From positions 76,231 to 140,230 of the forward strand of contig DATEHU010000033.1 of the NCBI GenBank assembly GCA_035279405.1: a stretch of DNA of 64,000 nt. Reading direction: 5' to 3'. A program made the translations under genes and the position numbers. Within the stretch, counting starts at the first letter, position 1. The number at the start of each line of letters is the position of its first letter. Positions 26,945 through 56,426 of the stretch are shown here, piece by piece. The DNA is from Gammaproteobacteria bacterium. GTDB lineage: Bacteria; Pseudomonadota; Gammaproteobacteria; Natronospirales; REEB76. The notes beneath the pieces are model-generated. The model ran no database searches. It was not told the origin of the DNA and saw nothing but the letters and a program-made list of their open reading frames with translations.

Positions 26945-28126
26945 TCAGGCCTGTCGCAAGCTCGCGGCAATCGGCAGGCGCACCGCGCGTACGGCCGGCA
27001 GGATGCCGCCCAGTATGCCCATCACCAGTGCGTACACCAGACCCCAACCCAGCAATTGCGGTGTCACGGCAAAGCGGAACGCGATGATCGTAAGCGTGTT
27101 GAATGTGGTGGCCTGAAAGCCGTTGAACAGCAGATACGCAAGCACTCCGCCGCACACGCCGCCCACCAGTCCGAGCACCAGGGCTTCGATCAGCACCGAG
27201 CACAGTACCGGCGTGCGCGCGAATCCCAGCGCGCGCAGCATGGCTATTTCCTGGGTACGCGCGGCGACCGCCGTGTACATGGTGTTGACCGCGCCAAACA
27301 CCGCGCCTCCGCCCATGAGTATGGCGATGATGACGCCGACGATGCCGATGAACATGCTCAGGCCCTGGGCCTGTCCGGCGAAGTAATCCGACTCGCGTTG
27401 CACGCTCACGTTCAACTGCGGGTTGTGTTCGAGCGATTGCTGGAATTCCGGAAACGCACTCGCGCTGGCGAGCTTCGCGTACATCGAGCTCACGGAGTTG
27501 CCGCGTTGATAGGCGCCCTGCAGCACCGGCAGGCTGGTCCAGATCTCGGAGTTGTGCAGACCTCCGCCGTCATCGAAGATGCCCACGACCTTCCAGTCAT
27601 AGCGGCCCGAATGCAGCGTGTCCCCGAGCTGCACGCCCTGAAACAGGCGTGCCGCATCCGCGCCCACGATGACTTCATTCAGTCCGGGCGACAGCATGCG
27701 CCCGGAGATAATGTGCACCCTGGGATGCACCTTGAACGCTGCGGCCGTCACGCCGCGGAACGACACGTTCGACTGCAATCCGCTGCTGCGTTTTTTCAGG
27801 CTGATCTGCACCAGCAATTCGGGCGAGACCAGCGGGCCATTCGGCCCCTGAGCCACGCCCGGCGCCTGGCCCACGGTGAAATCGCTGTTGCCGGCAAGCA
27901 CGCTGTTCACCTCGCTGCCGGCGCCGCCGCGCAGCACGATCGCGACATCCGGTGAACCCGTGGTGGTAAGCGTTGCGTGGAATCCCGCGCGGATCGACAG
28001 AATCGCGACCACCACCAGCACCACGCCCGCGAACCCGACCACCGCCACCAGCGAGGAATCCAGCCGCCGGCCGAGGTTGCGGAAATTCATCAGGCTCACT
28101 GCCGCGAGTTGCTTCAAGCCATTCAT
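26945..28126 (-). CDS. ABC transporter permease, FtsX/MacB-type
   Basis: 393 aa: N-terminal TM, large periplasmic domain, C-terminal FtsX module (...AARTQEIAMLRALGF...). ATGA overlap with the upstream permease. Confidence 0.8.
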   Translation of the reverse strand: MNGLKQLAAVSLMNFRNLGRRLDSSLVAVVGFAGVVLVVVAILSIRAGFHATLTTTGSPDVAIVLRGGAGSEVNSVLAGNSDFTVGQAPGVAQGPNGPLVSPELLVQISLKKRSSGLQSNVSFRGVTAAAFKVHPRVHIISGRMLSPGLNEVIVGADAARLFQGVQLGDTLHSGRYDWKVVGIFDDGGGLHNSEIWTSLPVLQGAYQRGNSVSSMYAKLASASAFPEFQQSLEHNPQLNVSVQRESDYFAGQAQGLSMFIGIVGVIIAILMGGGAVFGAVNTMYTAVAARTQEIAMLRALGFARTPVLCSVLIEALVLGLVGGVCGGVLAYLLFNGFQATTFNTLTIIAFRFAVTPQLLGWGLVYALVMGILGGILPAVRAVRLPIAASLRQA

Positions 28127-29280
28127 CCCGCGCTCCTCAGCGCCGCCACTACCTGCAAGCGCATGGCACGGCTGACCGGCAAGACCGCCGACAACACGCC
28201 CAGAAGCAGCATCAGCAATATGCCCAGCCCCGCACCCTGCAAGGGCAAATACAGCCCCGGCAGGAACTGCAGCAGCGCGCCCGGAATCGCGCCGATCACG
28301 GCATACGCCAGCGCCAGCCCGATAATTCCGCCGATGACCGTCAGCAGCAGCGATTCCGCGAGCACCAGACCTACCAGCCGCCTGTTGCCAAAACCCACGG
28401 CTTTGAGCACCGCCAGCTCTGCGGTACGCTCGCGCACGGACTGTGCCATGGTGTTGGCGGTCACCAGCAGCATGGTGAACAGCACCGCGCTTACCACTGC
28501 GGTCACGATCGCGCCGATATCGCCGAACTGCGCCGCGAAGTTCGAGACAAACGCCTTCTCCGTCGAGGTGCGCGTTTCGAAGGGGGAATTAGCAAACAGT
28601 GCATCCACAGCCTGCGCCACCTGGCCGGCTTCGGCCGGATTGGCAATCTGCAGCACGAACCAGCTCACGGTGTTGTTGGCAAACGCGCGCGCATCGTCCA
28701 GATACTGATAGTGCATGAACAGCTGGTTGTCGCCGCCTCTCTGGCTGCTGGTGTAGATGCCGTCCACGACTACGTCCCAGGTGTTGTTGCCGTGTGCATC
28801 GCGCCAGATATTGGAACGCAGCGGAACCTGCTGGCCGATTTTCCAGCCGTAGGCTTGGGCGAGCGCCGCCCCGACGATCACCCCGCGTTTGTCTGCAAGC
28901 CACGCCCGTTGCTGCACAACCGGTATCGAATATTCCGGATACACCGCGAAAAAATCCTGGCTGCGTACCGCCATGGCGAAGATGGGGTTGCGCGGATCCT
29001 GGTAATAGCCGCCCACCCAGGCCTGGGGATTCACGCGTTCCACGTCCTTGACATGGGCGATGCGCTCGCCATAGCTGATGGGCAGCGAGACGGTGAGCGA
29101 CACCGCACTCATGGTGAGCAAACGGTTGGCACCGGCGTAATTCGCGCCCAGCGTGAACGCCTCGCGAATCGCCATGAGCATGCCGAACAGCAGGAATGCG
29201 AACACCACCGACAACAGCGTGAACACCAGACGCGTCTTGTGGCGCGTGAGATTGGACCAGAGCAAGGGGAGATATTTCAC
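28123..29280 (-). CDS. ABC transporter permease, FtsX/MacB-type
   Basis: The probable start is the GTG at 29280 (VKYLPLLWSNLTRHKTRLVFTLLSVVFAFLLFG). The FtsX module is ...RERTAELAVLKAVGF.... The track ORF starts 28 codons earlier. Confidence 0.8.
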   Translation of the reverse strand: MKYLPLLWSNLTRHKTRLVFTLLSVVFAFLLFGMLMAIREAFTLGANYAGANRLLTMSAVSLTVSLPISYGERIAHVKDVERVNPQAWVGGYYQDPRNPIFAMAVRSQDFFAVYPEYSIPVVQQRAWLADKRGVIVGAALAQAYGWKIGQQVPLRSNIWRDAHGNNTWDVVVDGIYTSSQRGGDNQLFMHYQYLDDARAFANNTVSWFVLQIANPAEAGQVAQAVDALFANSPFETRTSTEKAFVSNFAAQFGDIGAIVTAVVSAVLFTMLLVTANTMAQSVRERTAELAVLKAVGFGNRRLVGLVLAESLLLTVIGGIIGLALAYAVIGAIPGALLQFLPGLYLPLQGAGLGILLMLLLGVLSAVLPVSRAMRLQVVAALRSAG

Positions 29281-29513
29281 GTTGGCGGTTCCCGTGCCGT
29301 GTGCTGAGTACCGCTCCCAGGTTCCCGGATCACGGCGCCGGGAATTATTGCCTGTGCCGCGCACGATTGCCAGCCCGCGGCATCACCGTCCGCGCATGAT
29401 AAATGTCATGCCGTGCCCGGGCGTGACATTCGTCACGCCCAAGTCCTGACGGTTGGGACTCGCCACACCGCAGCTTGAGTCGCATCCTGTGCCCACTGAA
29501 ACCGGAGAGCTGC

Positions 29514-30434: not shown

Positions 30435-31315
30435 ATACCGCAAGCGCCAAAGAAACTTCGGATGCCCTTATTGCATCGTCATTCCCGCAAAAGCGGGAAT
30501 CCAGTGACTCAAATACCTTGACCCCCGCTTCCGCGGGGGTGACAGATAAATCAAAACGCTGGACTTGGCAGGATACGCTTGGGGTATATCTGCGCGAAGC
30601 GGGCTTCGAGTTTGGGGAACTGATGCGCATGCCAGGTTTCGCGCTGCCGACACTGTTATTCCCCACCATGTTCTACGTGTTCTTCGGCCTGATCTTCGGC
30701 CGGAGCGGCGATCATCAGGTCGCCACCTACATGCTCGCGACCTACGGCACCTTCGGCATCATGGGGCCGGCGCTCTTCGGCTTCGGCGTGCATGTGGCAA
30801 TGGAGCGTGAGCGCGGCATTCTGGCACTGAAGCGCGTCGCGCCCATGCCACCCATGGCCTATCTGTTCGCCAAGGCCGCCATGGCCATGCTGTTTGCGCT
30901 GGTCATCGTGCTAATGCTATTTTTGCTGGGCGCACTGTTCGGCGGCGTGGCGCTGCCGCGCAGCGAGTGGTGGCTGCTCGCAGTCGCCTTGATCGTTGGG
31001 ACGTTGCCGTTTTGCGCGGTGGGCCTGGCGATCGGTGTGCGCGTCGGTGGCCAGGCGTCAGTCGCCATCATCAATCTCGTCTATCTGCCGATGTCATTCC
31101 TTTCGGGCCTGTGGGTGCCGCTGCAATTCTTTCCGCGCTGGCTGCAAGTCATGGCCAATGTATTCCCGGCCTATCATCTGGGCCAGATCGCACTCGGAAT
31201 CGTGCACCAGGACGATGGCAGCCGGTTCCTCGCGCATCTGATTTATCTGCTGCTGTTTACCGTGGTATGCCTAGGATTTGCGCAGCGCGGCTGGCGGCGG
31301 ATTCAGGATCGTTAA
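30431..31315 (+). CDS. ABC-2 type transporter permease
   Basis: Six predicted TM helices from ...FALPTLLFPTMFYVFFGLIF onward. The start is ambiguous: either the ATG at 30431 (ATGA overlap with the ATPase stop) or the GTG at 30539. A REP hairpin pair lies between them (see findings). Confidence 0.75.
   Translation: MNTASAKETSDALIASSFPQKRESSDSNTLTPASAGVTDKSKRWTWQDTLGVYLREAGFEFGELMRMPGFALPTLLFPTMFYVFFGLIFGRSGDHQVATYMLATYGTFGIMGPALFGFGVHVAMERERGILALKRVAPMPPMAYLFAKAAMAMLFALVIVLMLFLLGALFGGVALPRSEWWLLAVALIVGTLPFCAVGLAIGVRVGGQASVAIINLVYLPMSFLSGLWVPLQFFPRWLQVMANVFPAYHLGQIALGIVHQDDGSRFLAHLIYLLLFTVVCLGFAQRGWRRIQDR
30481..30540. repeat. REP hairpin pair (attcccgc-aaaa-gcgggaat and acccccgc-ttcc-gcgggggt)
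   Basis: Read directly. The minus-strand translation gives the familiar spurious peptide ...WIPAFAGMT (track ORF 30468-30653). Confidence 0.75.
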
Positions 31316-31328
31316 CCGGAGAACCCCC

Positions 31329-32870
31329 ATGAGCAGCAGGCAGCAAGGCATGATTCGCAGTGGCCTCATCATCTCGCTGTTGATCGCCGCGGCGGTCGTG
31401 GTGTTGTTCCTCCTGCCCACGCCGAAACCCGGCTTACCGGCGCACGCGGCGGTTACCGACACCGCCGCCACAACGCCCGCCGACTGCATTAAAACTCCAG
31501 CGGGCTTCAGTTCGCCCGCGGTGCTCGCAGCGAGCGCACCGGAAAGTCTGTGGAAAGGATGGACCTACAGCCACGCAATCGTACTCAGCGCCACGCCGGT
31601 TGCGGCGCTCATGGACCAGTCGGTCACCATCCGCGTGAGCGGACTCAAACCCGGCGAGCCGGTTACCTTGCGCGCCAGCATGCGGGATTACCTGCATCGC
31701 ACCTGGAGCGCCGAAGCGATTTTCTTCGCCGATGACCACGGTGTGGTGGACGTGACGCGCGATGCGCCTAAGTACGGCAGTTATTCCGGTATGCACGCCA
31801 TGGGTCTCGTCTGGTCCATGCTGCCGGAGAACGTGAAGAAGCCGCAGGAGGTCATGTATGACCCTTCGCTGGAGGACGCGAGCTATCCGCTCAGCGTCGA
31901 AGCGCTGGCGGGAAACCGGGTGCTCGCGCAAGCCACGCTCACGCGTTATCTGCGCACACCCGGCGTTACCAAGACTCTGGTCACCGCCGACGGTTTGGAG
32001 GGTGAGCTGTACACGCCCGTCACATCCGGTCCGCATGCCGCAGTGCTGGTACTGGGCGGATCGGAAGGCGGCTGGCTGTCGTCATCGCCGGAAGCCGCAC
32101 TGCTCGCCTCGCACGGTTACACCGCACTGGCGCTCGCCTATTTCCAGGGATTCCAGTCTTTCGATCCGCAGCTTGCCAGCCTGCCGAAAATGTTGATGAA
32201 CATTCCGCTGGAATACTTTGCCAAGGCGGCGGATTTTCTCAAACAACAACCCAACGTGGATCCGAAGCACATCGCCATCATCGGCTGGTCCAAGGGCGCG
32301 GAAGCCGCGCTGATCACGGCCGCGACCTTTCCGAAGGAATTTCAGGCGGTGATCGGATTCATGCCGAGTTCGGTGGTGTGGTCCGGTATTGAATACGGCC
32401 CCGGCCCCATCAGTTCATCCTGGACGCTACACGGCAAAGCTCTGCCCTGGGTCAACCCAGTGATAAATCCCGCCATGTTCAGCAGCGGCCAACCGCTGGC
32501 CTTCGTCGGCGCTTACCAAGCCGGATTGAAAGACGTAGCCGCGGCGGATAAAGCCGTCATTCCGGTGGAAAAAATTGCCGGGCCGGTGCTGTTGATCTCC
32601 GCCACCGACGACCAGATCTGGCCGTCGCCGCTCATGGCGCTCCAGATCATGCAGCGACTCGCTGCACACCATCACGCTTGCGACGATGAATCGCTGTGTT
32701 ATTCCGGCGCTGGTCACGACATTCAGGCAGCCTACCGCCCGACCAATGCCGGCGTCGTAGCCGTACCCGGAGGCAGTTTCGCCTTCGGCGGCAATCCGAC
32801 CGCCTACGCGTACGCTGATCGCGACGCCTGGAACAAAGTGCTGGCATTCCTGCACAAGTCCCTTCATTGA
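31329..32870 (+). CDS. BAAT/acyl-CoA thioesterase family hydrolase with an N-terminal membrane anchor
   Basis: I moved the start to the ATG at 31329 (MSSRQQGMIRSGLIISLLIAAAVVVLFLL). VSGLKPGEPVTLRASMRD...GSYSGMHAMGLVWSMLP parallels the ACOT/BAAT N-terminal domain. The nucleophile elbow is IIGWSKGAEAAL. Confidence 0.8.
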   Translation: MSSRQQGMIRSGLIISLLIAAAVVVLFLLPTPKPGLPAHAAVTDTAATTPADCIKTPAGFSSPAVLAASAPESLWKGWTYSHAIVLSATPVAALMDQSVTIRVSGLKPGEPVTLRASMRDYLHRTWSAEAIFFADDHGVVDVTRDAPKYGSYSGMHAMGLVWSMLPENVKKPQEVMYDPSLEDASYPLSVEALAGNRVLAQATLTRYLRTPGVTKTLVTADGLEGELYTPVTSGPHAAVLVLGGSEGGWLSSSPEAALLASHGYTALALAYFQGFQSFDPQLASLPKMLMNIPLEYFAKAADFLKQQPNVDPKHIAIIGWSKGAEAALITAATFPKEFQAVIGFMPSSVVWSGIEYGPGPISSSWTLHGKALPWVNPVINPAMFSSGQPLAFVGAYQAGLKDVAAADKAVIPVEKIAGPVLLISATDDQIWPSPLMALQIMQRLAAHHHACDDESLCYSGAGHDIQAAYRPTNAGVVAVPGGSFAFGGNPTAYAYADRDAWNKVLAFLHKSLH

Positions 32871-32905
32871 ATCCAGACTCTTTCAACACACACGAGGACA
32901 AAGTC

Positions 32906-33571
32906 ATGTCACATTTCCGCAGCAGATTCAAACTCAGCGGCCTGACGGCCGTTGCAGCAATTCTATTTGCCGGTTCGTTGTCGGCTGCGCCCACCGCGCA
33001 ATTATCCGCACCGGTTGCCAGCGTCGCGCCCGCCGGCACTGTCCTGATCGGTAACTTCGAAGGCAAGACCACAGTGAACAAGCAATACGGCACTCTCGTC
33101 ATCAATCACAGCCCGGAATTCGGCTGGGGCTGGTCGGTGACTACCGATCAGCGGGCCGGCGGCAATTCGGTAGCCGAGATCGCCTTGATTCATCCCGGTG
33201 CTGCCGGTACCAGGGGCGCATTGCAGATAACCGGCGAGATCAAACCGGGCTTTCCCTACGGCCCGTGGGCTGGCGCCATCTGGTTCCCGGGCCACGAACC
33301 CATGCAACCCGCTGACCTCTCAGCCAAGACGGAACTGACGTTCTGGGCGCGCGGCAAGGCCGGGAGCTACAACCTCATGCTGATGTCGGGCAGCCCCGGC
33401 GACATCCCGTTGTATGCTTCGTTCGTGACCACGCCCAAATGGAAGGAATACCATATTCCCCTGGCGGCCTCCTTCCCCAATGCCGACTGGAAGCAGGTGT
33501 ATTTCCTCGCTTTCAGCGCCGCCAATCAGGGAAAGTTTCAGTTCGATCTTGATCAAGTGAGTTTGCACTAA
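32906..33571 (+). CDS. secreted protein of unknown function (possibly a CIA30/CBM11-like beta-sandwich)
   Basis: I moved the start to the ATG at 32906 (MSHFRSRFKLSGLTAVAAILFAGSLSAAP signal peptide). The fold guess rests only on ...DQRAGGNSVAEI... and overall beta-rich composition. Confidence 0.55.
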   Translation: MSHFRSRFKLSGLTAVAAILFAGSLSAAPTAQLSAPVASVAPAGTVLIGNFEGKTTVNKQYGTLVINHSPEFGWGWSVTTDQRAGGNSVAEIALIHPGAAGTRGALQITGEIKPGFPYGPWAGAIWFPGHEPMQPADLSAKTELTFWARGKAGSYNLMLMSGSPGDIPLYASFVTTPKWKEYHIPLAASFPNADWKQVYFLAFSAANQGKFQFDLDQVSLH

Positions 33572-33575
33572 GCAC

Positions 33576-34748
33576 ATGCATGCACAAGGCGAGAAAATCT
33601 GGCAGCCGGTAGTGAGGCCGTTTCTCTGGCTTCACCACCGGCTGCTGCCGGGCAATACGCAATTCGGATGGACGCCCTATCTGTGGCTGCCCTACCTCAC
33701 TTTTTTCTTTCTCAACTATACAAACAAACCGTTTGGCGCCCTGCGCTGGACTCTATATGCGGTCGCGGGCCTGGTGTTCATCGCGCTGTATTTCCGCGGC
33801 TACCATGCCGCCAACCGCCGCGCCACACGCGAACTCGGCTGGATCATCACCGTCATCACCCTGCTCGGCTGCGGCTTCATGTGGCCGAACGCCAACGGTC
33901 TGGTGTTTTTCATTTATGCCGCCGCATTATGCGGCAGTCTCGATACCGTCAAGAACGGAGTGTGGGCGCTGCTGCTGATCATCGTCGCGTGTTTCAGCAG
34001 CGCGTTATTGGCAAACGTCAATCTCATGGTTTTGAGTTACATTCTGTTTTTCGTAATTGTCCTTGGCCTGGCCAATCTTTATTTCGGCGAGATGGGCCGC
34101 AAGAACCGCGCGCTCAAGCTGTCGCAGGACGAGATCCGCAAGCTCGCCGCCAGTGCCGAGCGCGAGCGCATCGCGCGCGACCTGCACGACCTCCTGGGCC
34201 ACACGCTCACGCTCGTGACCGTCAAGGCAGAACTCGCGGCCAAGCTTGCGGAGCGCGATCTCGCGGGCGCAGCGCGTGAAATCCGCGACGTGGAGCGCAT
34301 CTCGCGCGAGGCGCTCGCCCAGGTGCGCGAGGCGGTGGGCGGCTATCGCAGCAGCGGTCTGGTCGGCGAACTCGTCAATGCGCGCGTGGCGCTCACCGCC
34401 GCCAACGTCAGGCTGGCGGAAAGAGTGGAGCCGCCGAAATTGTCTCCCGCACAGGACTCGGTGCTCGCCATGGTGCTGCGCGAAGCCGTGACCAACGTGA
34501 TCCGTCATTCCGGCGCGCACCACTGCCGCATTGAACTCGAAAACCGCGACCGGGAACTGTGCCTGCTGATCGAGGACGACGGCCGCGGCGGCACCCTGCA
34601 CGAGGGCCACGGCCTCAAAGGCATGCGCGAGCGCCTGCAGACGGAGGCTGGCCGGCTGGAAATCGACTCCGGCCATGGCGGCACGCGCCTCACCGTGCTG
34701 TTGCCCACGCATCCCTCTGCTCCGGAAAGCGGACCGGTGATGGCCTGA
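33576..34748 (+). CDS. sensor histidine kinase, HisKA_3 (DesK/NarX-like) family
   Basis: The N-terminal half is polytopic. The H-box is ERERIARDLHDLLGHTLTLV. The HATPase_c region includes ...DDGRGG...GHGLKGMRERL. Confidence 0.85.
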   Translation: MHAQGEKIWQPVVRPFLWLHHRLLPGNTQFGWTPYLWLPYLTFFFLNYTNKPFGALRWTLYAVAGLVFIALYFRGYHAANRRATRELGWIITVITLLGCGFMWPNANGLVFFIYAAALCGSLDTVKNGVWALLLIIVACFSSALLANVNLMVLSYILFFVIVLGLANLYFGEMGRKNRALKLSQDEIRKLAASAERERIARDLHDLLGHTLTLVTVKAELAAKLAERDLAGAAREIRDVERISREALAQVREAVGGYRSSGLVGELVNARVALTAANVRLAERVEPPKLSPAQDSVLAMVLREAVTNVIRHSGAHHCRIELENRDRELCLLIEDDGRGGTLHEGHGLKGMRERLQTEAGRLEIDSGHGGTRLTVLLPTHPSAPESGPVMA

Positions 34749-34750
34749 GC

Positions 34751-35353
34751 ATGATCAAGGTGCTCGTCGCCGAAGACCAGGGCATGATCCTGGGCGCACT
34801 CGCCGCGATGCTGGACCTCGAAGAGGACATTTCGGTGGTGGCGCGCGCCGCCAACGGCAAGGAGGCACTCAAACTCGCGGCGGAATTCAATCCGGACGTC
34901 GCGGTCACCGACATCGAGATGCCGGGCATGACCGGTCTGGAATTCGCCGCGGCGTTGCAGGCACACCAGCATGCCGCCAAAGTCATCATCGTGACCACAT
35001 TTGCGCGGCCGGGTTATCTGCGCCGCGCGCTCGACGCGGGCGTCAAGGGCTATCTGCTGAAGGACGCACCGGCGGAACAACTGGCGAATGCCATCCGCAA
35101 GGTACATGACGGCGGCAAGGTAATCGCGCCGGAACTCGCCACGGAAGCGTGGGAAAGCGCGGATCCGCTCAACGACCGCGAGCGTCAGGTGCTGCGCCTC
35201 GCCGGCGAGGGCCTGGCAAGCGCGGACATTGCCAAGCAGTTATTTCTCTCCGAAGGCACGGTGCGCAACTATCTTTCCGAAGCCATCGGCAAACTTGGTG
35301 CCGCCAATCGCATCGAAGCCGCGCGCATCGCACGTCAGAAAGGTTGGCTTTAG
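34751..35353 (+). CDS. response regulator, NarL/LuxR family
   Basis: I moved the start to the ATG at 34751 (MIKVLVAEDQGMILGAL...VAVTDIEMPGMTGLE). The C-terminal HTH is LNDRERQVLRLAGEGLASADIAKQLFLSEGTVRNYLSEAIGKLG. Confidence 0.92.
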   Translation: MIKVLVAEDQGMILGALAAMLDLEEDISVVARAANGKEALKLAAEFNPDVAVTDIEMPGMTGLEFAAALQAHQHAAKVIIVTTFARPGYLRRALDAGVKGYLLKDAPAEQLANAIRKVHDGGKVIAPELATEAWESADPLNDRERQVLRLAGEGLASADIAKQLFLSEGTVRNYLSEAIGKLGAANRIEAARIARQKGWL

Positions 35354-35396: not shown

Positions 35397-35996
35397 TTAG
35401 TGCAGCGGGTGGATCTGCGGAGAACTATCCAGCAGCGGGCGCGCCATGTCCCTGCGCACCGAGATTACGTCCGGAAGTTTCGCAACCTGTGCCGCTTCGG
35501 CAGCAGTGAGCTTCACCGTCATGCCGTTCATGGCGTAGAAATACACAAAAGCCGGCGTCACCGTGCACCCCAGCGCAGCGTCCAAGCTGGCCAGGAATTT
35601 TTCCTGCTGCGCCTTGAGATAGGCGAGATACGCACGGCTGGCCGGACTGTTCAGATCAAGAGATCGCGCACCCGTAACCGCAGGGTTTGTGGCCGCCAAG
35701 CCCGGCAGGTCACCCGCGTAGCTCGCCAGAGGCGCGGCGCTGAGCTGCACGATGTACGGCTGCGCAGCGGTCGCATCCGCCACTCCGGCATTTGAAGCGC
35801 GTGCGCTCGCCCCGATCACCGGGGCAATCTTCAGGGTTTTCTGCGGCGTACTGCTGCATGCACCCAGCAGCAAAGCGCACATCAGCATCATTGCCACAAT
35901 CAGTACACTGATCAAGAAACGCACGCTACGCTCCAAGGCCGCAAGTGGGCCGCGAAACATGTGCACACTTGTCATTCGGGTACGCGCGTAGCGCAA
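35397..35996 (-). CDS. lipoprotein consisting of a stand-alone subtilisin-propeptide (inhibitor I9-like) domain
   Basis: Lipobox LLLGAC. The remainder (YIVQLSAAPLASY...FYAMNGMTVKLTAAEAAQVAKLPDVISVRRD) aligns by eye with the propeptide of the adjacent subtilase (YIVQFNVLPAAIY...HYALNGMAVRLTAAQVAQLRSLPNVKSIQPD). Confidence 0.7.
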   Translation of the reverse strand: MRYARTRMTSVHMFRGPLAALERSVRFLISVLIVAMMLMCALLLGACSSTPQKTLKIAPVIGASARASNAGVADATAAQPYIVQLSAAPLASYAGDLPGLAATNPAVTGARSLDLNSPASRAYLAYLKAQQEKFLASLDAALGCTVTPAFVYFYAMNGMTVKLTAAEAAQVAKLPDVISVRRDMARPLLDSSPQIHPLH

Positions 35997-36052
35997 TCAC
36001 GGAAGCGCCGGTTTTCGACCACTCCGCTTGCACGCTTCCTGCGTACATTGCA

Positions 36053-39000
36053 TTACGCGCACTTCCGGCGGCGCAGCACCGTCACACCCAGACCCAGCGC
36101 CAGCAATCCCAGCAGACCGAGGCCGCCGCCACCGCCGCTGGAGGGTGACTGCACGCTGAAGCTCACACTGCCGAACGTACCGCCACCGGGCGGGGGTATG
36201 GTCACGGACACCGCATAGGTTCCGGCGTTGGCAATCGCCGATGCCGGCACGGTTGCGGTTAATTGCGTGGACGACACAAAGGTCGCGGTAAGCGGCGTGC
36301 CGTTGAAATTGACCATGGCTCCGTTCACGAAGTTGGTGCCGTTCACGGTCAATTTGAACGCGCCTCCACCTGCGGTGGCGCTGGTGGGTGAAATGTTCGT
36401 GACTGTCGGCTCGGCCGCCACGTTCTCGGTTACCGGCACCACGATGAACGGTGTGTTCGGGTCATTGCCAAGCACGCACAACACGCCGCCGATGCTGCCC
36501 GCGGCCAGCGCAGCCGGATTGAACTGCACGGTCACCGTGCCGGTGGAATTCGGCTGGACGGCGCCGCTCGTGGCGCTGAGGCTCAGGCCGGGAATGGCGC
36601 TCACCGCGCTGCCCGAGCAGTTGAGCGTACCCATGAGTTCGAACGCCAGCGACATGCTGCCGGTGGCATTCTTGTCCACATTGGTATTCGGACCCAGCAA
36701 GGCCCAGTTTGCGATTCCCGGCGATCCCGCCGCCTGCCCAAACAGATTACCCGGGTCAATGAGCGAACCGCTGCCGCCGCCGGGCGCCGATTCGAACCAG
36801 TACCAGGCTTCGTTCGTGCAGCCGCTCCCGGACTTGAAGGCGCAGCTGTCATTGAAGGTGGGAACCACCAGCAGCCAGTACTTGCCCGCGGACAGATTGA
36901 GGGCCGGCGCCCCGGCTGTGCCGAGATCAAGATCGATGTTGCTGAATTGGGTATCCGTGGTCACACCCGGCGCGGTGGGTGCCGCCGTAAAACTCCACAG
37001 ATAGTCATTCTTGCCGTCTTCCGGATTGCCCGCCGGCTCGCCGTTGGCGTCGGCATACACATACCAGGAGATTTGCGTGGCATCCGCTGCGGCGCCGGCC
37101 GCTGTCGAACTTTGTGCAAAGCCCTCGGCGTTCACACCGGTAATGCTGCCCGCCACCGGCATGCTGAAGGTATCAGCGCTGTAAAGGCCGTGACCGTCAC
37201 TGGTGAAGTAGGACGAGGGGACGCCATTGTCGCTGCTGTCGGAAGGCCGGTTTACGATGGGCACGGGACTGCTGGCGCGCGGTACGCTGCCAGTGCCGGC
37301 ATCAGCCATGAGCGGGTTCGCCGCGCTGCCGGCCGGGCTGGCGACGCTGTCGAGTGTCCAATTGAGCACGCCGGGGCCGGTGTTCTGGATGGTCAGCGCC
37401 TGAGTCTGGGTGCTGCCGCCGGCGGTCAGCGCCTGCGTGAATGAACCGGGCGACACGCCCATCTTCGGCTGTGGCACGGCATTGAAGACCGCCACCGGGA
37501 AATGTTGCGTCGGCGCGGCGCTGCCGTCGGGCTCTGTGCTGCTGGTGGTGAAATCCACGCGCCCGAAGACCCATTGATTGACGGTCAATCCGCCCATCGA
37601 AGCCGTGAATGTCAGCACCTCGGTGGCGCCCGGATTCAGGGTGAATGAGGTCGGACTCACGGTCAGCCACGGCACGGTTGACGTCACGGTGTAATTGAGC
37701 CCCACCGTTTGCACCGAGGTCAGAGTGCGCGTCCAACTGCAGCTCGCCTGGCAGTTGGCGTTGCCGAGGCTCGGCAGATTGATCCCGGTGGGATCGCCGC
37801 CGCTGTCCGGATTCTCGGCGTCGAAATTCGCCTTGGTTACCTCCAGCACGAAGCCGGCACGCGCCGCCACGTTCACCTGAATGCGGCCCGCACCCGCGCT
37901 CTGCGGCGTCGGCGGTTCCGGTTCCGTGACCGTGCAGGAGTTGGCCGTCGCGTTGGCGGCATCGCATTGATCGTGCAGGTTTGCATCCGGCACTGCCGTG
38001 GTCATGAGCGCCGACTTGATGGCCATGGGATCCCAGCTGGAATGCAATTCCATCAGCAGTGCGCCCGCGCCCGTGCTGTGCGGCGTGGCCATGGACGTGC
38101 CATCGAGGAAACCGAAAGTTTCCTGCTGATTGTCCGGACAGGTGGAAGGCGTGACGGTGTAACAGGGATCCGCCAAGGCGCCCAGGATGCTTACACCCGG
38201 CGTCACCACGTCCGGCTTGATCAGGCTGTCAAACGCATTCGGCGTTGCGGGATAGGTGCCCACGGGTCCGCGCGAGCTGAAGCCGGCCACGAAGTCCGCG
38301 GCCGATGTATTGCCGCTGCTGTAGGTGGCGCCGGAGAGTTGTGCCGTCAATGTCGCGCTACCGCTGCCCGTGATCCAGTTGCGCAGCGTGTTTCCGTCCG
38401 TGATATCAATCAGCGTGCCGGGAATATCGTATTGCTCGGCGACCATGAGACTACTGCTGGCGGGGGTGGTGGCAATTACCACAGCGCCCGCGCCGCCCTG
38501 CTTGGCGTCGTCCGCCTTGTCCACCAGCGCAATCGCGCCGCGATCGCAGAGCACGATGACCCCAGCGGGCAATGCCGGCGTGGTAAAGGTCTGGCCCGCG
38601 GGCACGGCGAAGGGATACAGACACTGCGCGGCATCGGTTTGCGCGTTGCCTGAGGGTTGCACGTAGGCCTGGCCCGACTGCGAATACTTCTGGCTCGCGT
38701 AGTTCGCCGTCAACCAGGCGTAATACTGCGTGCTGTACGTATAGGCGCTGTTTCCGGCATACACGATGGGCGCCGGACCAAAACCGCCGGTCGCGCCCTG
38801 ACCGCTGAGGGTGCCGGTCGGCGTTCCCGTGCCGCCGCTGAAATTCTCCAGATTGTTCGGACCGAACTGCCCGTCATGGGTACCGGCGGCCACGGTCATG
38901 ACCCAGGGTCCCAGGTGCTGCACCGCATACTGGCTGCCTGGCGTCTGGCTGTTCGGCGGGTTGGCGGGTCCGCCATTGCCGGCGGCGGCGGACACGAAGA

Positions 39001-40189
39001 TGCCCGCCTGCTCGGCCGCTTCAAAAGCCTGCTCCACCGGATCGTTGTAGGGATCGTCGCTGCCGCCGATGGAATAATTGATGACCATGCCCTTGAAGCC
39101 GGTGGGATCGGCGGTTTTCAGCGCGCTCAAATCCTGGATCGCCTGATCCACGGCGGCGATACTGGCTGATTCGCTGCACTGATCCTTGGGATCGCAGACG
39201 TCGTACGCGATGATATTCGCGTGGGGTGCGACACCCGAGAAATTGAAGCCGATGCCGGCTACCGTAGCGGTGGTGAAATTGCCCGCGGCAATGCTTGCCG
39301 TGTGCGAGCCGTGGCCCTCGGAATCTCGCGGCGAGTTTGCGTCGTTGCCCGTGCTCAGGGTGTACGTGTAGGCGCCGATTAATTTGGAATTGCAGGGGAA
39401 ACTCGCCTGATAGGTATCCGGCTGCCCGGCCGCGGTATTGGCCGGATTGCATACGCCCAGATAGCTGCTGGCGCCCAGCGGATTGGCAATCGTGTAGCCG
39501 TCCGCGCCGGCGGCGGCAAACGAGGAATTGGCCGCGTTAATGCCGGTGTCCAGGTCCGCAACCACCACGCCTTCGCCTTCGTTGTCACTGCCGCTGCCGG
39601 TGTTGAAAGTGGGCAGGGCCCAGAGCTGCGCCGAACCGATCCAACTGCGGCTCGGAAACGTATCGGTCGCGGTCGCGGGAATCGGCACGCTCACCGGCCG
39701 GAAAGACCGGTCGGGCTGAATGGATTTCACGTTGGGGAGACTGCGCAATTGCGCCACTTGCGCGGCGGTCAAGCGCACGGCCATGCCGTTCAGGGCATAG
39801 TGATAGTCAAAACGCGGGCGCAGCGGGCGCTGCACAATGCTGGCGGCACGGGTCAGAAACTGCGCGTGCTGCGTGGCCATTGCGCGCACATAGGCCTGGA
39901 TGGTCGGAGCGCGCACATCCAGGTAACGTTGGCCGCGGCTCTCGGTGCTGTGGGTCTCAACCCCGGCGCCGCGCGCATAGATCGCCGCCGGCAGGACATT
40001 GAATTGCACGATGTAACTTTGCATGCCGTCGGCACGGACCGCGGCGGCAACCTTGTCGGCGGCCGGCCTGAATATCTTTTGTGCCACGCCGATGCTGAGC
40101 TGCAAACCGCCCGCCGCCACCGCGGCAGCGGCCAGGACCAATACGGCGACCCCCACCAATCCCCGGAAATGTGCGAGATGCAGTTTCAT
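36053..40189 (-). CDS. S8 family serine peptidase (subtilase) with I9 propeptide, PA-like insert, multiple Ig/IPT-like domains and a GlyGly-CTERM-like tail
   Basis: I moved the start to the ATG at 40189 (MKLHLAHFRGLVGVAVLVLAAAAVAA signal). Catalytic Asp in VVVADLDTGI, His in HGSHTASIAAG, Ser in DGTSMATPH. The C-terminus is ...SSGGGGGLGLLGLLALGLGVTVLRRRKCA. Confidence 0.9.
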   Translation of the reverse strand: MKLHLAHFRGLVGVAVLVLAAAAVAAGGLQLSIGVAQKIFRPAADKVAAAVRADGMQSYIVQFNVLPAAIYARGAGVETHSTESRGQRYLDVRAPTIQAYVRAMATQHAQFLTRAASIVQRPLRPRFDYHYALNGMAVRLTAAQVAQLRSLPNVKSIQPDRSFRPVSVPIPATATDTFPSRSWIGSAQLWALPTFNTGSGSDNEGEGVVVADLDTGINAANSSFAAAGADGYTIANPLGASSYLGVCNPANTAAGQPDTYQASFPCNSKLIGAYTYTLSTGNDANSPRDSEGHGSHTASIAAGNFTTATVAGIGFNFSGVAPHANIIAYDVCDPKDQCSESASIAAVDQAIQDLSALKTADPTGFKGMVINYSIGGSDDPYNDPVEQAFEAAEQAGIFVSAAAGNGGPANPPNSQTPGSQYAVQHLGPWVMTVAAGTHDGQFGPNNLENFSGGTGTPTGTLSGQGATGGFGPAPIVYAGNSAYTYSTQYYAWLTANYASQKYSQSGQAYVQPSGNAQTDAAQCLYPFAVPAGQTFTTPALPAGVIVLCDRGAIALVDKADDAKQGGAGAVVIATTPASSSLMVAEQYDIPGTLIDITDGNTLRNWITGSGSATLTAQLSGATYSSGNTSAADFVAGFSSRGPVGTYPATPNAFDSLIKPDVVTPGVSILGALADPCYTVTPSTCPDNQQETFGFLDGTSMATPHSTGAGALLMELHSSWDPMAIKSALMTTAVPDANLHDQCDAANATANSCTVTEPEPPTPQSAGAGRIQVNVAARAGFVLEVTKANFDAENPDSGGDPTGINLPSLGNANCQASCSWTRTLTSVQTVGLNYTVTSTVPWLTVSPTSFTLNPGATEVLTFTASMGGLTVNQWVFGRVDFTTSSTEPDGSAAPTQHFPVAVFNAVPQPKMGVSPGSFTQALTAGGSTQTQALTIQNTGPGVLNWTLDSVASPAGSAANPLMADAGTGSVPRASSPVPIVNRPSDSSDNGVPSSYFTSDGHGLYSADTFSMPVAGSITGVNAEGFAQSSTAAGAAADATQISWYVYADANGEPAGNPEDGKNDYLWSFTAAPTAPGVTTDTQFSNIDLDLGTAGAPALNLSAGKYWLLVVPTFNDSCAFKSGSGCTNEAWYWFESAPGGGSGSLIDPGNLFGQAAGSPGIANWALLGPNTNVDKNATGSMSLAFELMGTLNCSGSAVSAIPGLSLSATSGAVQPNSTGTVTVQFNPAALAAGSIGGVLCVLGNDPNTPFIVVPVTENVAAEPTVTNISPTSATAGGGAFKLTVNGTNFVNGAMVNFNGTPLTATFVSSTQLTATVPASAIANAGTYAVSVTIPPPGGGTFGSVSFSVQSPSSGGGGGLGLLGLLALGLGVTVLRRRKCA

Positions 40190-40507
40190 CGGCGTGCCCC
40201 TCGAAAGCTGAAACGAACCAAACCACGTGCGGTTAACCGGCAAAGACGCAAGCGCGTTGAAATGATCGGCAGAATCCCCTCAAGTTCCCTTTGAGATGGT
40301 TCGTTTCTAGCACAGCGTCCGCGTGCAAGTCAAAATCACGGCGCACGGCCCCGATGGAGAACCGGTCATGCAGATATTCTCCGGCGGCCAGCCGCAGCAC
40401 GCAGTTACTTGATTCCTGTCGTGCACGGCACACAATGCTCAGGTTGGCGGTGGAGTGCCCGAGGCGCATACTGCGCGTCCATGATCGTTCCACCGTCGAG
40501 GTGCGTG

Positions 40508-50992: not shown

Positions 50993-51658
50993 CTATTGGT
51001 TCAGCCATTTAGGGCCACTGACAAACGGATTGCCGCGCTCATAGAAACGCAGCCGGCGGTCCGCGTCCTTGGTGATGCCGATGCGCACGCCGCGGCCGAT
51101 GCGTCCAACCGGCCGCAAGGCGTGCGCCAGCCACAGCGGGCCTTGGGCACACAAGTCCAGGCCGTCCAGTTTCATGGTCACGCGCAGTGCCGCCGCCAGG
51201 CGTCCCGGCCCGCGCGCCAGATCCTTGTCCGCGACATGGCTGCGGCCGCGCTTCATCAGCTCCTCGCCAGCCAGCGGCTCCAGTGCGCGGAACAACACGG
51301 CCGCGCCCACCCCCTCCTTTTCCGCGCTCACGTTCAGCATGTAGTAATTGCCGTAAATGAAATACACGTAGGCATGCCCGGGCGGCAGAAACAGCGAACG
51401 GTTGCGCTTGGTCATGCCGTTGAACGCGTGACAGGCCTTGTCGTAAGGCAGATAGGCTTCGGTTTCCACGATACGCCCGATGATCCGGCGTTGAGGCAGT
51501 TCGCGCACAAGCGTCTTGCCGATGAGATACCGCGCAAGTTTGGTCGCGGCCACGGGCAGGCTGCGGCGTGACAACCGCCGCAAGGAACTGATGGACGACG
51601 TCGGGATGCTCACGCGATCAGCTTCACGAGCCGGGTTCGCCCGTCTCACGCTGGACAA
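50993..51658 (-). CDS. mpg: DNA-3-methyladenine glycosylase (AAG/Mpg family)
   Basis: 221 aa. LARYLIGKTLVREL...GRIVETEAYLPYDKACHAFNGMTKRNRSLFLPPGHAYVYFIYGNYYMLNV. Confidence 0.85.
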   Translation of the reverse strand: MSSVRRANPAREADRVSIPTSSISSLRRLSRRSLPVAATKLARYLIGKTLVRELPQRRIIGRIVETEAYLPYDKACHAFNGMTKRNRSLFLPPGHAYVYFIYGNYYMLNVSAEKEGVGAAVLFRALEPLAGEELMKRGRSHVADKDLARGPGRLAAALRVTMKLDGLDLCAQGPLWLAHALRPVGRIGRGVRIGITKDADRRLRFYERGNPFVSGPKWLNQ

Positions 51659-51736
51659 CGTAAACCGTGCCGCGGCATGGCCACCCTCTCATCGAGATTC
51701 CCATGCACCCACTATGGCATACGGCACACTCATGGG

Positions 51737-51768
51737 AAATAAAAAGCCCCGCCGCGAACGGCAGGGCT
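51737..51768 (-). terminator. rho-independent terminator of the RRM-protein gene
   Basis: The minus-strand RNA reads AGCCCUGCCG-UUCG-CGGCGGGGCU (10-bp stem with one G.U pair and a UUCG loop), followed by UUUUUAUUU. It lies 37 nt downstream of the stop at 51805. Confidence 0.85.
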
Positions 51769-51804
51769 TTTCATCGTCTGAATCAAATCAGACACACCGC
51801 AGAT

Positions 51805-52116
51805 TTACCACCGAGAGCGGTTACCACCACCATTACCGCCACCGCCAGAGCGGAAGCCACCGGTACGCGGCTTGTCGGTGGCAACGCTGACCTTGAGCGG
51901 ACGACCGCTGAGGTCCTTGCCATTCTGCTCGAGCGCCTTCTCCGCCGCGGCCTGGGTCGCGAAGGTGATGAATCCGAAGCCCTTGGGGCGGCCGGTATCG
52001 CGATCCATGATCAGGGCCAGTTCTGAAATTTCGCCGTACTGGGAAAAGATTCCGCGCAACTGCGTTTCATCCACCGAGTAAGGAAAATTTCCCACATACA
52101 GTTTGTTCTGTGACAT
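51805..52116 (-). CDS. RRM-type RNA-binding protein with a Gly-rich tail
   Basis: 103 aa. RNP-2 is KLYVGNF and RNP-1 is KGFGFITF. The C-terminus is ...GGFRSGGGGNGGGNRSRW. Confidence 0.9.
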   Translation of the reverse strand: MSQNKLYVGNFPYSVDETQLRGIFSQYGEISELALIMDRDTGRPKGFGFITFATQAAAEKALEQNGKDLSGRPLKVSVATDKPRTGGFRSGGGGNGGGNRSRW

Positions 52117-52155
52117 TGCAATCTCTCTTAAAAGTAATGGATAACTTGAACGTTT

Positions 52156-52431
52156 GTTCTCGAAAACAGTGGCGGGTAATGACTGTCAGAAGCCATCTCA
52201 AAAATGACTGGGTACGCGCAGAGCACGACTGGCATTAGCGGGAAACGGGGGCGTACAGGGCGGTACACAAACGAGGTACGGGGATGTACGGGTGCCGCGC
52301 AAGCCCTGAAAGTCCCCGGTCGGGGAGGAAACAGGATGCCGAAGCGGCGATTCCGAGCTGACGCTACTGGGCTTTGCCAGACGCAGTGGTTTTTGAGATG
52401 GCTTCTGAATACCGCTGACTGTGTTGAGAAC
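52156..52431. repeat. long-range inverted repeat (perfect 18-bp core, about 45-bp imperfect arms) enclosing about 185 nt
   Basis: cagaagccatctcaaaaa at 52187-52204 is the exact reverse complement of tttttgagatggcttctg at 52390-52407. The arms extend imperfectly out to gttctc (52156) and gagaac (52431). Confidence 0.8.
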
Positions 52432-52642
52432 GCGCGCTTTATACCACGTCCTGCGGAATATAGATAGCAAAGACAGAAGCTAGACGGAGCTATGGCCGTT
52501 TTGCTCGATGTTCTCGAGACCACAAAATGTACACAGCCGTGTCTTGCATGCTCCCCGGGCCGGGACTCCCCGAACTGCGTGGAGAACGCCATGAGTTCGC
52601 TAGTGGGTCCGCGTCGCAAAGGAAGTGGCGAAGCCATCCTGA

Positions 52643-53326
52643 TCAGGATTTTAGCGGCTGGGGACGTGTGGCTCCGATAGGCAAATCCACCGCCCGCTTC
52701 ATCTGGGGCGTATCAAAGATGCCGGGGTCACGCAGATAATCCTGCATCATCTCCAGCGAATCCTGGCCCCAGAACAACTGCTCCCCGATAAGGAAAGTCG
52801 GTACGCCGAAAACGCCTTTGGATATGGCGGTATCGGTGTTGGTTTTCAACTTCGCCTTGATTCCGGGATCAGCCAATGTCGCCTGAGCATCCTTGATTCC
52901 AAGCCGCCGCCCCAGCTCGGCAATTTCCCCGGGGTCCTGTAAATCCCGCCCTTCCTGCCAGATCATGTCGAATGCAACCGCCACATTCGCAGGATTTGGC
53001 CCGGCGGCAATGAGCAATCGCTGCGCGGCCAGTGAATTGAAGGGATGCGAGGGCGGCATCTTGAACGGAATCCCCAGATTGCCTGCGAGCCACGTCACAT
53101 ACCGATAGGTGTAGGTTCGTTTGGCCGGGATTTCCGCCGGACCCTTTTGGTCCCAGTGCTTCAGCAGCCCTGCGAGCAGGACGGGAACGTATTCAATTTC
53201 AAGGGACTCAGGGAGCTTGTGCAACAGTTTGAGATGCAGATACGCAAACGGAGAAATCACATCAAAATACCAATTCGCGCGAGTCATCTTGCACTCCAGC
53301 ACAGACATGAAACTGTAGTCTGCCAC
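52643..53326 (-). CDS. 2-hydroxychromene-2-carboxylate isomerase family protein (DsbA-like fold)
   Basis: NWYFDVISPFAYLHLKLL..., then ...GVFGVPTFLIGEQLFWGQDSLEMM. The likely start is the internal ATG at 53287. Confidence 0.75.
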   Translation of the reverse strand: MADYSFMSVLECKMTRANWYFDVISPFAYLHLKLLHKLPESLEIEYVPVLLAGLLKHWDQKGPAEIPAKRTYTYRYVTWLAGNLGIPFKMPPSHPFNSLAAQRLLIAAGPNPANVAVAFDMIWQEGRDLQDPGEIAELGRRLGIKDAQATLADPGIKAKLKTNTDTAISKGVFGVPTFLIGEQLFWGQDSLEMMQDYLRDPGIFDTPQMKRAVDLPIGATRPQPLKS

Positions 53327-53388
53327 TGATTATTTAGATATTCGCTCTGACCCCATTTCTCCCACCTTTCTCCTCAGCACGCGGTCCG

Positions 53389-54150: not shown

Positions 54151-54193
54151 GCGGAAATCTTTCCGGTTTGAGGCGCGCCAGTATATAGAATGA

Positions 54194-55099: not shown

Positions 55100-55242
55100 C
55101 CACTCGAAAACTCAAAAAGGTTCCTCTCGGAAAATCTCGCGCTGTTACGGATTCCCGTGTGAAGTCGCTGCTAGGCAAGTATAGAGGCAAGAGGTTGCTC
55201 AGGGCTCTGGCGATGGAGAAGAAACGGGAACGGGAGATTTGA
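55096..55242 (+). CDS. small basic ORF (48 aa) of unknown function
   Basis: Translated by hand: MTTRKLKKVPLGKSRAVTDSRVKSLLGKYRGKRLLRALAMEKKREREI. Its ATG overlaps the preceding stop (ATGA). It is below the 60-aa cut-off of the track. There is no other support for it. Confidence 0.3.
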   Translation: MTTRKLKKVPLGKSRAVTDSRVKSLLGKYRGKRLLRALAMEKKREREI

Positions 55243-56300: not shown

Positions 56301-56317
56301 CCGGTAACCGATGACGC

Positions 56318-56348
56318 ATAAAAAAGCGCCGCCTGTTCATGCAGCGCT
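56318..56348 (-). terminator. rho-independent terminator downstream of hppA
   Basis: The minus-strand RNA reads AGCGCUGC-AUGAACAG-GCGGCGCU (7 of 8 positions paired), followed by UUUUUUAU. Confidence 0.7.
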
Positions 56349-56357
56349 TGGATTCCC

Positions 56358-56418
56358 TGTAGGAGCGGCATTCTTGCCGCGATCTTGCAGAATCGCGGCC
56401 GAGACGGCCGCTCCCACA
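56358..56418. repeat. REP-like nested hairpin (tgtaggagcggc ... gccgctcccaca)
   Basis: The outer stem is ggagcggc/gccgctcc and the inner stem gccgcgat/atcgcggc. A related 5' half, tgtgggagcggc, recurs at 60821-60832. Confidence 0.65.
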
Positions 56419-56426
56419 AAAGATAG

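Follow-up and report, generated by a model that had tools for sequence, protein, structure and literature searches.

Why should a giant protease that already carries an I9-type propeptide be followed, on the same strand, by a separate gene for a lipoprotein consisting of little more than another I9 domain? The question is raised by a locus within a 64-kb stretch (the window) of a 275-kb contig from a metagenome-assembled soil Gammaproteobacteria bacterium, in which the gene for an S8A subtilase (36053..40189, minus strand) lies directly upstream of the gene for an I9-only lipoprotein of 175 residues (35397..35924, minus strand). Based on sequence comparison and predicted structure, we favor, with moderate confidence, the answer that the small protein would act as an envelope-tethered, cognate, propeptide-mimicking inhibitor of the adjacent protease.

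Gene models at the locus

The initial annotation described two minus-strand genes separated by 56 nucleotides (nt), the first encoding an S8 protease of 1378 residues and the second a lipobox-bearing protein of 199 residues. Both open reading frames (ORFs) are present in the ORF listing. The protease ORF spans 36053-40243 (1396 residues, minus strand), and an internal ATG at 40189 gives the 1378-residue protein, which has a Peptidase_S8 match in Pfam, is identical to NCBI entry HKV97238.1 (named “S8 family serine peptidase”) and shows a cucumisin/C5a-peptidase-like architecture. For the downstream gene, the lipobox was confirmed whereas the length was not. A GTG at 35924 is preceded by GGAG 6 nt upstream, homologs from divergent relatives share this start position (L013 uses ATG there), and the exact 175-residue product is deposited as HKV97237.1 with the label “protease inhibitor I9 family protein.” Judging from these starts, the small gene almost certainly begins at GTG 35924 and not at the TTG of the 199-residue ORF; its stop codon is at 35397-35399. 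With the GTG start, the small protein is 175 residues long, and the spacer to the protease gene (35925..36052, minus strand) is 128 nt rather than 56 nt. The spacer is conserved among close relatives.

The small protein is predicted to fold as an I9 domain

The small protein begins with a lipoprotein signal peptide, MRFLISVLIVAMMLMCALL-LGAC (35856..35924, minus strand), in which residues 1-22 together with Cys23 form the lipoprotein signal, the lipobox reads LLGA-C23, the putatively lipidated Cys23 is encoded at 35856-35858, and the +2 residue is Ser. A lipobox-like motif is found in 25/25 family members with an intact N-terminus, and Asp occupies the +2 position in 0/25. The signal is followed by a low-complexity tether (residues 24-54; 35763..35855, minus strand), which is poorly conserved, evolves rapidly by its substitution rates (see below), and is disordered in the AlphaFold2 (AF2) model, with a predicted local distance difference test score (pLDDT) of 33-48. 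The I9 domain itself (residues 55-159; 35448..35762, minus strand), supported by Pfam, AF2, Foldseek and a Protein Data Bank (PDB) profile search, ends in the invariant Asp159. The remaining 16 residues, MARPLL-DSSPQIHPLH (MARPLLDSSPQIHPLH; residues 160-175; 35400..35447, minus strand), form a C-terminal tail with a P1-like Leu165 six residues after Asp159.

Inhibitor_I9 (PF05922) is the sole Pfam family found in the small protein (26.4 bits, E 1.2e-5, against a gathering score of 21.2), so that the absence of a catalytic domain, noted initially, is borne out and the I9 assignment passes the profile threshold. A precomputed PF05922 match is also present on several homologs of the small protein. 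In the AF2 model, for which an alignment of 16 sequences was used as input, pLDDT is about 90 or more across most of residues 55-160, and the tether and the tail are disordered. The secondary structure elements follow the order strand, helix, strand, strand, helix, strand (strand 55-61, helix 94-118, a strand bridge near residue 125, strand 134-139, helix 141-147, and strand 153-158). When this model was compared with the PDB by Foldseek, the matches included pro-subtilisin E, the BPN' prosegment, the cucumisin propeptide, POIA1, and the PCSK9 prodomain, with template modeling (TM) scores of 0.56-0.70 normalized on the target and with E-values that are weak, as the domain is short; the scores were 0.66-0.70 for pro-subtilisin, the cucumisin propeptide, POIA1, and the PCSK9 prodomain. 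MORF proteins were likewise among the matches. A profile search of the PDB with the small protein recovered the cucumisin propeptide (4yn3_B, E 6e-6). The predicted fold of the small protein is thus that of an I9 domain.

In both I9 domains, conservation is highest in the roughly 30 residues that separate the first strand from the first helix, with the pattern PL..Y.GG..GL.AT.P...G...LD..S.AS.AY. They lie within residues 62-154 of the small protein (35463-35741, minus strand) and residues 64-129 of the protease. This stretch is missing in classical subtilisin propeptides and lies outside the Pfam I9 match. It is modeled with high confidence in the small protein, and its center (79-86) has low confidence in the protease model. 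Contact with the PA domain is one example of the role that it may play.

Relationship between the two I9 domains

The initial annotation regarded the small protein as a second copy of the propeptide of the neighboring protease. The two regions are homologous beyond chance in a pairwise alignment (37% identity over 115 residues, E 2e-16, BLASTP), and this part of the claim stands. The idea of a copy made from the neighbor fares less well. The I9 core of the small protein is 36% identical to the propeptide of the neighbor and 39-44% identical to those of the neighbor's orthologs, but up to 53-55% identical to the propeptides of other long subtilases, in a comparison set that is biased because it was picked by similarity to the small family. 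The highest identity, 62%, is to a fragment that is probably a member of the small protein's own family, and subtilase propeptides from Chloroflexota show 43-48% identity to the small protein (tblastn). A recent copy of the neighbor's propeptide was therefore rejected (36-37% identity against up to 55% to other propeptides). The small gene is either an old duplicate whose cis counterpart has diverged faster, or a derivative of another subtilase.

Conservation of the small gene and its pairing with the protease

A small protein that is homologous to the N-terminus of its neighbor could simply be a decaying partial duplication of the 5' end of the protease gene, or a mis-called ORF. The initial annotation had reserved this explanation for the event that the small ORF was unconserved or frame-disrupted in relatives. 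Neither is the case. A search of 5.8 billion proteins returned 15 relatives of the small protein, which reach down to about 42% identity, have intact frames, and are mostly 159-187 residues long, ending just past the I9 domain. Further stand-alone members of less than 50% identity (P0016, P0018, P0019, P0022, and P0025-27) came from a profile search against 1.84 billion cluster representatives. The ratio of nonsynonymous to synonymous substitution rates (dN/dS), estimated by the Nei-Gojobori method, is 0.14-0.39 for the whole small gene and 0.17-0.26 (about 0.2) for its I9 domain, compared with 0.15-0.18 for the protease and with 0.6-1.1 for the signal and tether among close relatives. The I9 domain is under purifying selection. 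Furthermore, the lipobox, which the protease does not have, must have been gained and has been kept in all 25 members mentioned above, and the neighbor's propeptide is not the closest relative of the small gene. Decay or mis-annotation is refuted by this conservation, the low dN/dS and the retained lipobox, and is given next to no probability here.

Amino acid replacements accumulate about three times faster in the small gene than in the protease (dN of 0.125 against 0.042 when compared with L001; 0.12-0.15 against 0.04-0.08 overall). The synonymous divergence of the small gene is also about twice that of the protease for the same relatives (dS of 0.59 against 0.28, L001). The latter excess could be sampling noise, given 119 codons, or could reflect differing recombination histories of the adjacent genes.

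The co-occurrence of the two genes was surveyed in L001, L002, L013, L014, L015-17, L018, L019, and L020/21, which represent at least eight further lineages. An orthologous giant S8 gene lies directly upstream of the small gene in every locus with DNA context, and its product shares between about 40% and 92% identity with the window's protease. The distance between the two genes varies from a 4-nt overlap (L019) through an 8-nt gap (L014) up to 146 nt. The full-length protease orthologs found are all at least 90% identical, and a metagenome scan for further full-length pairs returned a single locus (L022), which is an ordinary S8 gene with a propeptide. Together, the pair makes up a conserved protease/partner module.

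The C-terminal tail resembles that of the partner's propeptide

For subtilisin BPN' and cucumisin, our alignment of known sequences places P1 of the propeptide six residues past a conserved Asp or Asn that comes after the last strand. The roles of this Asp cap and of the tail have been summarized elsewhere (PMC6993865). In the stand-alone family, the position of Asp159 is invariant and the residue six positions later (D+6) is Leu, Val, or Met, and the two-residue pattern [P/T][L/V/M/A/I] at D+5/D+6 is present in 25/27 members. One gene, represented by L013s and P0011, encodes a protein that ends exactly at the D+6 Leu, and two other sequences end one residue later. Among the partner protease and its orthologs, Pro occupies D+5 of the cis propeptide in 7/7, and the full pattern is found in 4/7 (R-P-V166, K-P-V, R-P-A, and H-P-L). 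By comparison, only 14/162 other S8 propeptides fit the pattern, and most of them read ..L-[E/D/T] followed by TD.GP.WIGA. The cis tail of the partner in the window, R-P-V166, resembles R-P-L-L165 of the small protein, and the AF2 confidence of the protease falls right past residue 166, which agrees with a junction there. Of all the observations, this resemblance points most specifically to a free I9 domain that would offer the active site a partner-like, product-like tail.

The partner protease and its putative sorting tail

The protease shows the Asp-His-Ser triad in subtilase order, an oxyanion Asn, a PA insert, and an Fn3-like domain. Its N-terminal region (about residues 1-36; 40082..40189, minus strand), MKLHLAHFRGLVGVAVLVLAAAAVAAGG..., resembles a Sec-type signal peptide, with a helix predicted at residues 8-22 at low pLDDT. 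The I9-type propeptide recognized in the initial annotation is found next (residues 57-166, YIVQF...SIQPD-RSFRPV; 39692..40021, minus strand), on the evidence of Pfam, AF2 and the alignment with the small protein; the Inhibitor_I9 match covers residues 107-162 with 27.7 bits, above the gathering score of 21.2. The catalytic domain (residues 205-736; 37982..39577, minus strand) is matched by Peptidase_S8 with an E-value of 5.6e-38, and the three motifs reported at the outset were all located: VVVADLDTGI at 208-217 (Asp214), HGSHTASIAAG at 293-303 (His293), and DGTSMATPH at 696-704 (Ser699), with Asn405 as the oxyanion residue. In the family alignments, D214, H293, and N405 are invariant columns. 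The PA insert within the catalytic domain (residues 537-602; 38384-38581, minus strand) scores above the Pfam gathering score. An Fn3-like domain (residues 803-882; 37544..37783, minus strand) falls below the thresholds of both fn3_6 (23.3 bits against a cut-off of 26.4) and fn3_5, and its assignment draws on a beta-rich AF2 model and a match to the C-terminal domain of cucumisin and SBT3.

The AF2 model of residues 1-900 has a predicted TM score of 0.83. The cis I9 core (residues 57-160) is modeled confidently, with pLDDT above 90, and a low-confidence linker (167-177) precedes the mature N-terminus. Cucumisin is the best structural neighbor of the model (4yn3_A, E 4.5e-39, 25% identity), together with SBT3 and the streptococcal C5a peptidases (ScpA), which places the protease as a bacterial member of the PA-domain, Fn3-bearing subtilases. 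Toward the C-terminus lies a TIG/IPT Ig-like domain of the “choice-of-anchor Z” repeat type (residues 1260-1346; 36152..36412, minus strand), supported by Pfam TIG at 1260-1345 (E 6e-11, above the gathering score) and by NCBIfam CoaZ_rpt_PGGG (102.8 bits, cut-off 30).

The protease ends in a putative sorting tail of the GlyGly-CTERM/MYXO-CTERM type (36056..36151, minus strand), made of a Ser/Gly-rich motif, a hydrophobic helix, and RRRK, and reading SSGGGGG-LGLLGLLALGLGVTVL-RRRKCA. This tripartite arrangement is kept in nine orthologs. Scanned alone, the tail in the window scores 24.3 bits for MYXO-CTERM (cut-off 20). GlyGly_CTERM (TIGR03501) gives 17.6 bits for the tail of L018, which passes the cut-off of 15.5, and 13.8 bits for those of L019 and L020, which fall below it. 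The tail in the window scores best with MYXO-CTERM, in which it differs from GlyGly-CTERM substrates such as VesB, yet it has no counterpart of the invariant Cys of MYXO-CTERM (PMC11980579). The published definition of GlyGly-CTERM has three parts, a motif rich in Gly and Ser, a hydrophobic segment, and a basic cluster, and the tail fits it (PMC6219818). VesB, a secreted protease of Vibrio cholerae, carries this signal and reaches the cell surface by way of rhombosortase and the type II system (PMC6219818). Like the protease studied here, VesB has a tripartite tail, and it is held at the surface by that route (PMC6219818); unlike it, VesB belongs to the trypsin-like S1 proteases and is not known to have an I9 partner. 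The tail suggests rhombosortase-type surface anchoring. No rhombosortase or myxosortase was found among about 32 window proteins scanned, a set that covers the window incompletely.

With anchoring signals on both proteins, one might consider that the small protein is a docking or retention partner at the surface, holding the protease in a latent complex until a signal releases it, and that it is a receptor or a timer instead of a guard. The long flexible tether would allow the I9 domain to reach a neighboring anchored enzyme, and the faster replacement rate of the small gene is compatible with such a role. On the other hand, the protease has its own anchor, which makes a second retention device seem redundant, and no regulatory element was found. 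We regard docking as quite unlikely.

A second family of I9-only lipoproteins

Three distant I9-only lipoproteins (P0015, P0024, and P0056), all of 178 residues, form a separate group. Their loci are L023 (753-4404), L024 (5275-8017), and L012 (8001-9374), and in the first two the gene order is the opposite one, with the small gene upstream of the S8 gene. In L023, the I9 gene precedes, with a gap of 29 nt, the gene for a 1028-residue S8 protease that has I9, PA, and Fn3 domains of its own. In L024, it again lies 29 nt upstream of the gene for an orthologous S8 protease, 64% identical to that of L023 and cut at 726 residues by the contig end. In L012, a DUF4277 transposase-like gene holds the protease position. 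The small proteins of this family are 47% identical and the proteases 64%, so here, too, the small protein diverges faster.

The recurrence of such pairs bears on the possibility that the small protein is a defensive inhibitor of foreign subtilases released by soil competitors, with its position beside an S8 gene being merely historical. The I9 core is consensus-like and nearer to the propeptides of unrelated bacteria than to that of the neighbor, as given above, which would suit a target elsewhere. A defensive role of this kind is nevertheless improbable: synteny with one orthologous protease is strict across 40-92% identity, the genes overlap in some lineages, the tail resembles the partner's own tail, and the independent second family likewise adjoins an S8 gene.

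Two other proteins were noted among the I9-containing sequences. P0021 is a subtilase of 1326 residues with two tandem I9 domains split by hydrophobic, transmembrane-like segments, and P0017 looks like two subtilase pre-pro units, either fused or called as a single ORF. They show further plasticity of I9 modules.

Proposed function and alternatives

In the mechanism that we propose, the protease would be made as a pre-pro-enzyme, exported by the Sec system, and assisted in folding by the I9 propeptide that it carries, to end up probably lipid-anchored on the cell surface through the GlyGly-CTERM-type tail. In the small lipoprotein, a flexible linker some 30 residues long would connect the acylated Cys to the I9 domain, and the protein is expected in the outer membrane under the E. 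coli +2 rule. Its free I9 domain would bind the mature catalytic domain in the manner of a cleaved propeptide, with the beta-sheet packed on two surface helices and the C-terminal R-P-L-L165 occupying the S4-S1 subsites. Such a tight inhibitor would neutralize protease that is active in the periplasm or at the producer's own cell surface, and its role would be self-protection and activity gating, as with the potempins and KLIKK peptidases, SUB1-ProM and SUB1, or SPI-1 and plant subtilases. Binding, inhibition, membrane and leaflet, co-transcription, and the sorting route of the protease are all inferred here. A lipid anchor, a flexible tether, and a protease that is itself anchored would together fit a guard of the cell's own envelope, by analogy with the outer-membrane lipoprotein inhibitors of Tannerella, which are co-encoded with secreted peptidases and protect the producer's outer membrane (PMC9890683).

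The chief alternative is that the small protein is a trans-acting foldase or maturation factor, a steric chaperone tethered at the envelope that would assist the giant protease in folding, or in refolding once it has crossed the membrane, with inhibition as a by-product. Models for it exist in the lipase-specific foldases and in PrtM, a lipoprotein that serves the lactococcal cell-envelope proteinase PrtP. Tethering beside the export route would fit a maturation factor, and the tight pairing, with overlapping or closely spaced genes in L019 and L014, would fit a stoichiometric assembly factor. The partner's cis propeptide is also the more divergent of the two (median identity to other propeptides 30%, against 44% for the small protein, in a set biased to the small family). 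Moreover, I9 propeptides are intramolecular chaperones besides being inhibitors (PMC6993865). However, the protease retains a complete and confidently folded cis I9 domain, so that a second foldase is not obviously needed, and every characterized stand-alone I9-like protein is an inhibitor, none acting as a foldase (PMC6993865). The product-like hydrophobic tail would suit an active-site blocker, although it discriminates weakly, as chaperoning propeptides share it. We consider a foldase role unlikely, although more probable than the other alternatives.

Between the inhibitor and the trans chaperone, the evidence leans toward the inhibitor, on account of a P1-like residue at cleavage distance, the partner-like tail, and the activity of the characterized stand-alone I9 proteins. 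Together with the fold, the strict pairing, and the retained cis propeptide, these are the reasons why inhibition is favored.

Several observations weigh against a cognate inhibitor. The I9 core of the small protein is less like the partner's propeptide (36-44%) than like many other propeptides, and cognate specificity is thus not evident from the core. The P1 assignment follows from alignment geometry and should be read as putative. Propeptides are normally degraded by their own protease. In the second family, the trans tail (..L-E-L-H) is unlike the cis tail of the partner (..H-L-P-L), which means that tail mimicry is not a general rule. Finally, L018 has a strong terminator-like hairpin followed by a T-run (GAGGGGCTGATTTTCAGCCCCTCTTTTTTTT; about 1185-1240) between the protease gene and the I9 gene, indicating that strict co-transcription is not universal; taken with the overlap in L019 and the 8-nt gap in L014, it shows that expression coupling differs between lineages.

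A bolder reading can be put forward, though it is unlikely as a whole. The small proteins might be the first bacterial stand-alone I9s, a widespread class of lipid-tethered propeptide mimics that form switchable protease-inhibitor pairs, anchored at the surface, with giant GlyGly-CTERM subtilases. Beyond protecting the cell, they would decide when and where the protease is active, either by release on contact with substrate or prey or as obligatory trans-foldases after outer-membrane transit. Such pairs would have arisen independently at least twice, with the lipoprotein gene downstream of its partner in one family and upstream in the other.

Spacer and genomic context

The 128-nt spacer contains no sigma-70-like promoter and no terminator-like site, and its predicted RNA fold is no better than that of shuffled sequences (z = -1.05). 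No tRNA and no Rfam match were found in the whole window. Upstream of the protease gene lie an amidohydrolase gene and then pyk-pgk-gap-tkt, an ordinary chromosomal setting. Downstream of the lipoprotein gene, a convergent block (window 31278-35353, plus strand) holds four genes, for a BAAT-type acyl-CoA thioesterase, for a small protein, and for a two-component system made up of a HisKA_3 histidine kinase and a GerE/LuxR response regulator. Counterparts of this block are found in L015 (1715-5818, 4/4 genes) and in L020 (2196-4634, the last three genes, for the small protein, the kinase, and the regulator). The small protein of the block has no Pfam family in the window, and its L015/L020 counterpart has a weak CIA30 match.

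About 6 kb from the lipoprotein gene, two adjacent genes (26945-29364, minus strand) encode FtsX-domain permeases of LolC/LolE-like appearance, and the one at 28123-29364 additionally has a MacB-like periplasmic core domain. The G+C content dips to 0.53 at 1-2000 and to 0.56-0.58 at 52001-56000, and is about 0.63-0.65 elsewhere in the window; a repeat scan of 51000-57000 returned nothing notable.

Comparison with known systems

That a cognate inhibitor can be encoded beside a secreted protease and protect the envelope is already known, and automated annotation names the small protein as I9-family. The characterized stand-alone I9 inhibitors in the literature searched are all eukaryotic, and the search returned no paper on a bacterial I9 lipoprotein. 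The initial statement that no characterized tethered bacterial version beside its protease was known holds for I9 lipoproteins, but has to be narrowed in view of the potempins, inhibitor lipoproteins of another fold (PMC9890683). What is new here is a putatively lipid-anchored I9 protein whose gene is tied to that of a giant, probably surface-sorted subtilase, and which has a counterpart in a second family of the opposite gene order. A conserved bacterial version would show that bacteria, too, split the propeptide off as an independent regulator. The principle being established, the gain is incremental rather than conceptual. In practical terms, such proteins could serve, ready-made and probably with high specificity, to inhibit large cucumisin-like subtilases of bacteria, which are hard to express, or to help them fold, and a PF05922-only ORF with a lipobox beside an S8 gene provides a genomic signature by which more pairs may be found.

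The small protein shares PF05922 and the same predicted topology with the cis I9 propeptides of cucumisin, SBT3, subtilisin BPN'/E, and Tk-subtilisin, and also the Asp cap, with a hydrophobic P1-like residue at the end of the six residues that come after it. It differs from them in being made as a polypeptide of its own that carries a signal for export and lipidation; never being covalently joined to the catalytic domain, it has no autoprocessing step.

Among eukaryotes, POIA1 of Pleurotus, PBI2 of yeast, SPI-1 of Arabidopsis, MIC5 of Toxoplasma, and SUB1-ProM of Plasmodium are likewise separate small proteins with a propeptide fold (PMC6993865). The SUB1-ProM gene adjoins that of its target subtilase, and SPI-1 targets plant subtilases of the cucumisin type (PMC6993865). 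In the structural comparison above, these are the solved structures closest to the protease studied here. POIA1 and the cucumisin propeptide are both among the structural matches of the small protein. In contrast, the eukaryotic inhibitors are soluble, whereas the small protein is bacterial and has a lipoprotein signal and a tether; several of them lack detectable similarity to propeptides, whereas the small protein is clearly homologous; and their inhibition has been measured, whereas that of the small protein is a prediction.

In bacteria, a functional parallel is offered by PopD and PopC of Myxococcus xanthus, in which a small operon partner forms a complex with a subtilisin-like protease and restrains it (PMC6434023, PMC4320627). 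PopD differs in that it is described as blocking secretion of its protease, which lacks a signal peptide, and as being removed by regulated proteolysis; it is not reported to be a lipoprotein, and these sources do not state its fold (PMC6434023, PMC4320627).

The potempins of Tannerella forsythia are small outer-membrane lipoproteins encoded beside the secreted, surface-sorted peptidase that they target, and the target of PotC, mirolase, is an S8 subtilase (PMC9890683). The potempins differ from the small protein in fold, having an OB-fold/eight-stranded beta-barrel with a reactive-centre loop where the small protein is a predicted alpha/beta I9 domain. They also differ in gene order, as they are encoded upstream of the peptidase whereas the small gene lies downstream (upstream in the second family, L023/L024), and they belong to another phylum that uses the type IX secretion system, whereas the protease here carries a GlyGly-CTERM-type tail. 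Judging from its predicted fold, the small protein may work like a potempin without being a member of the potempin family.

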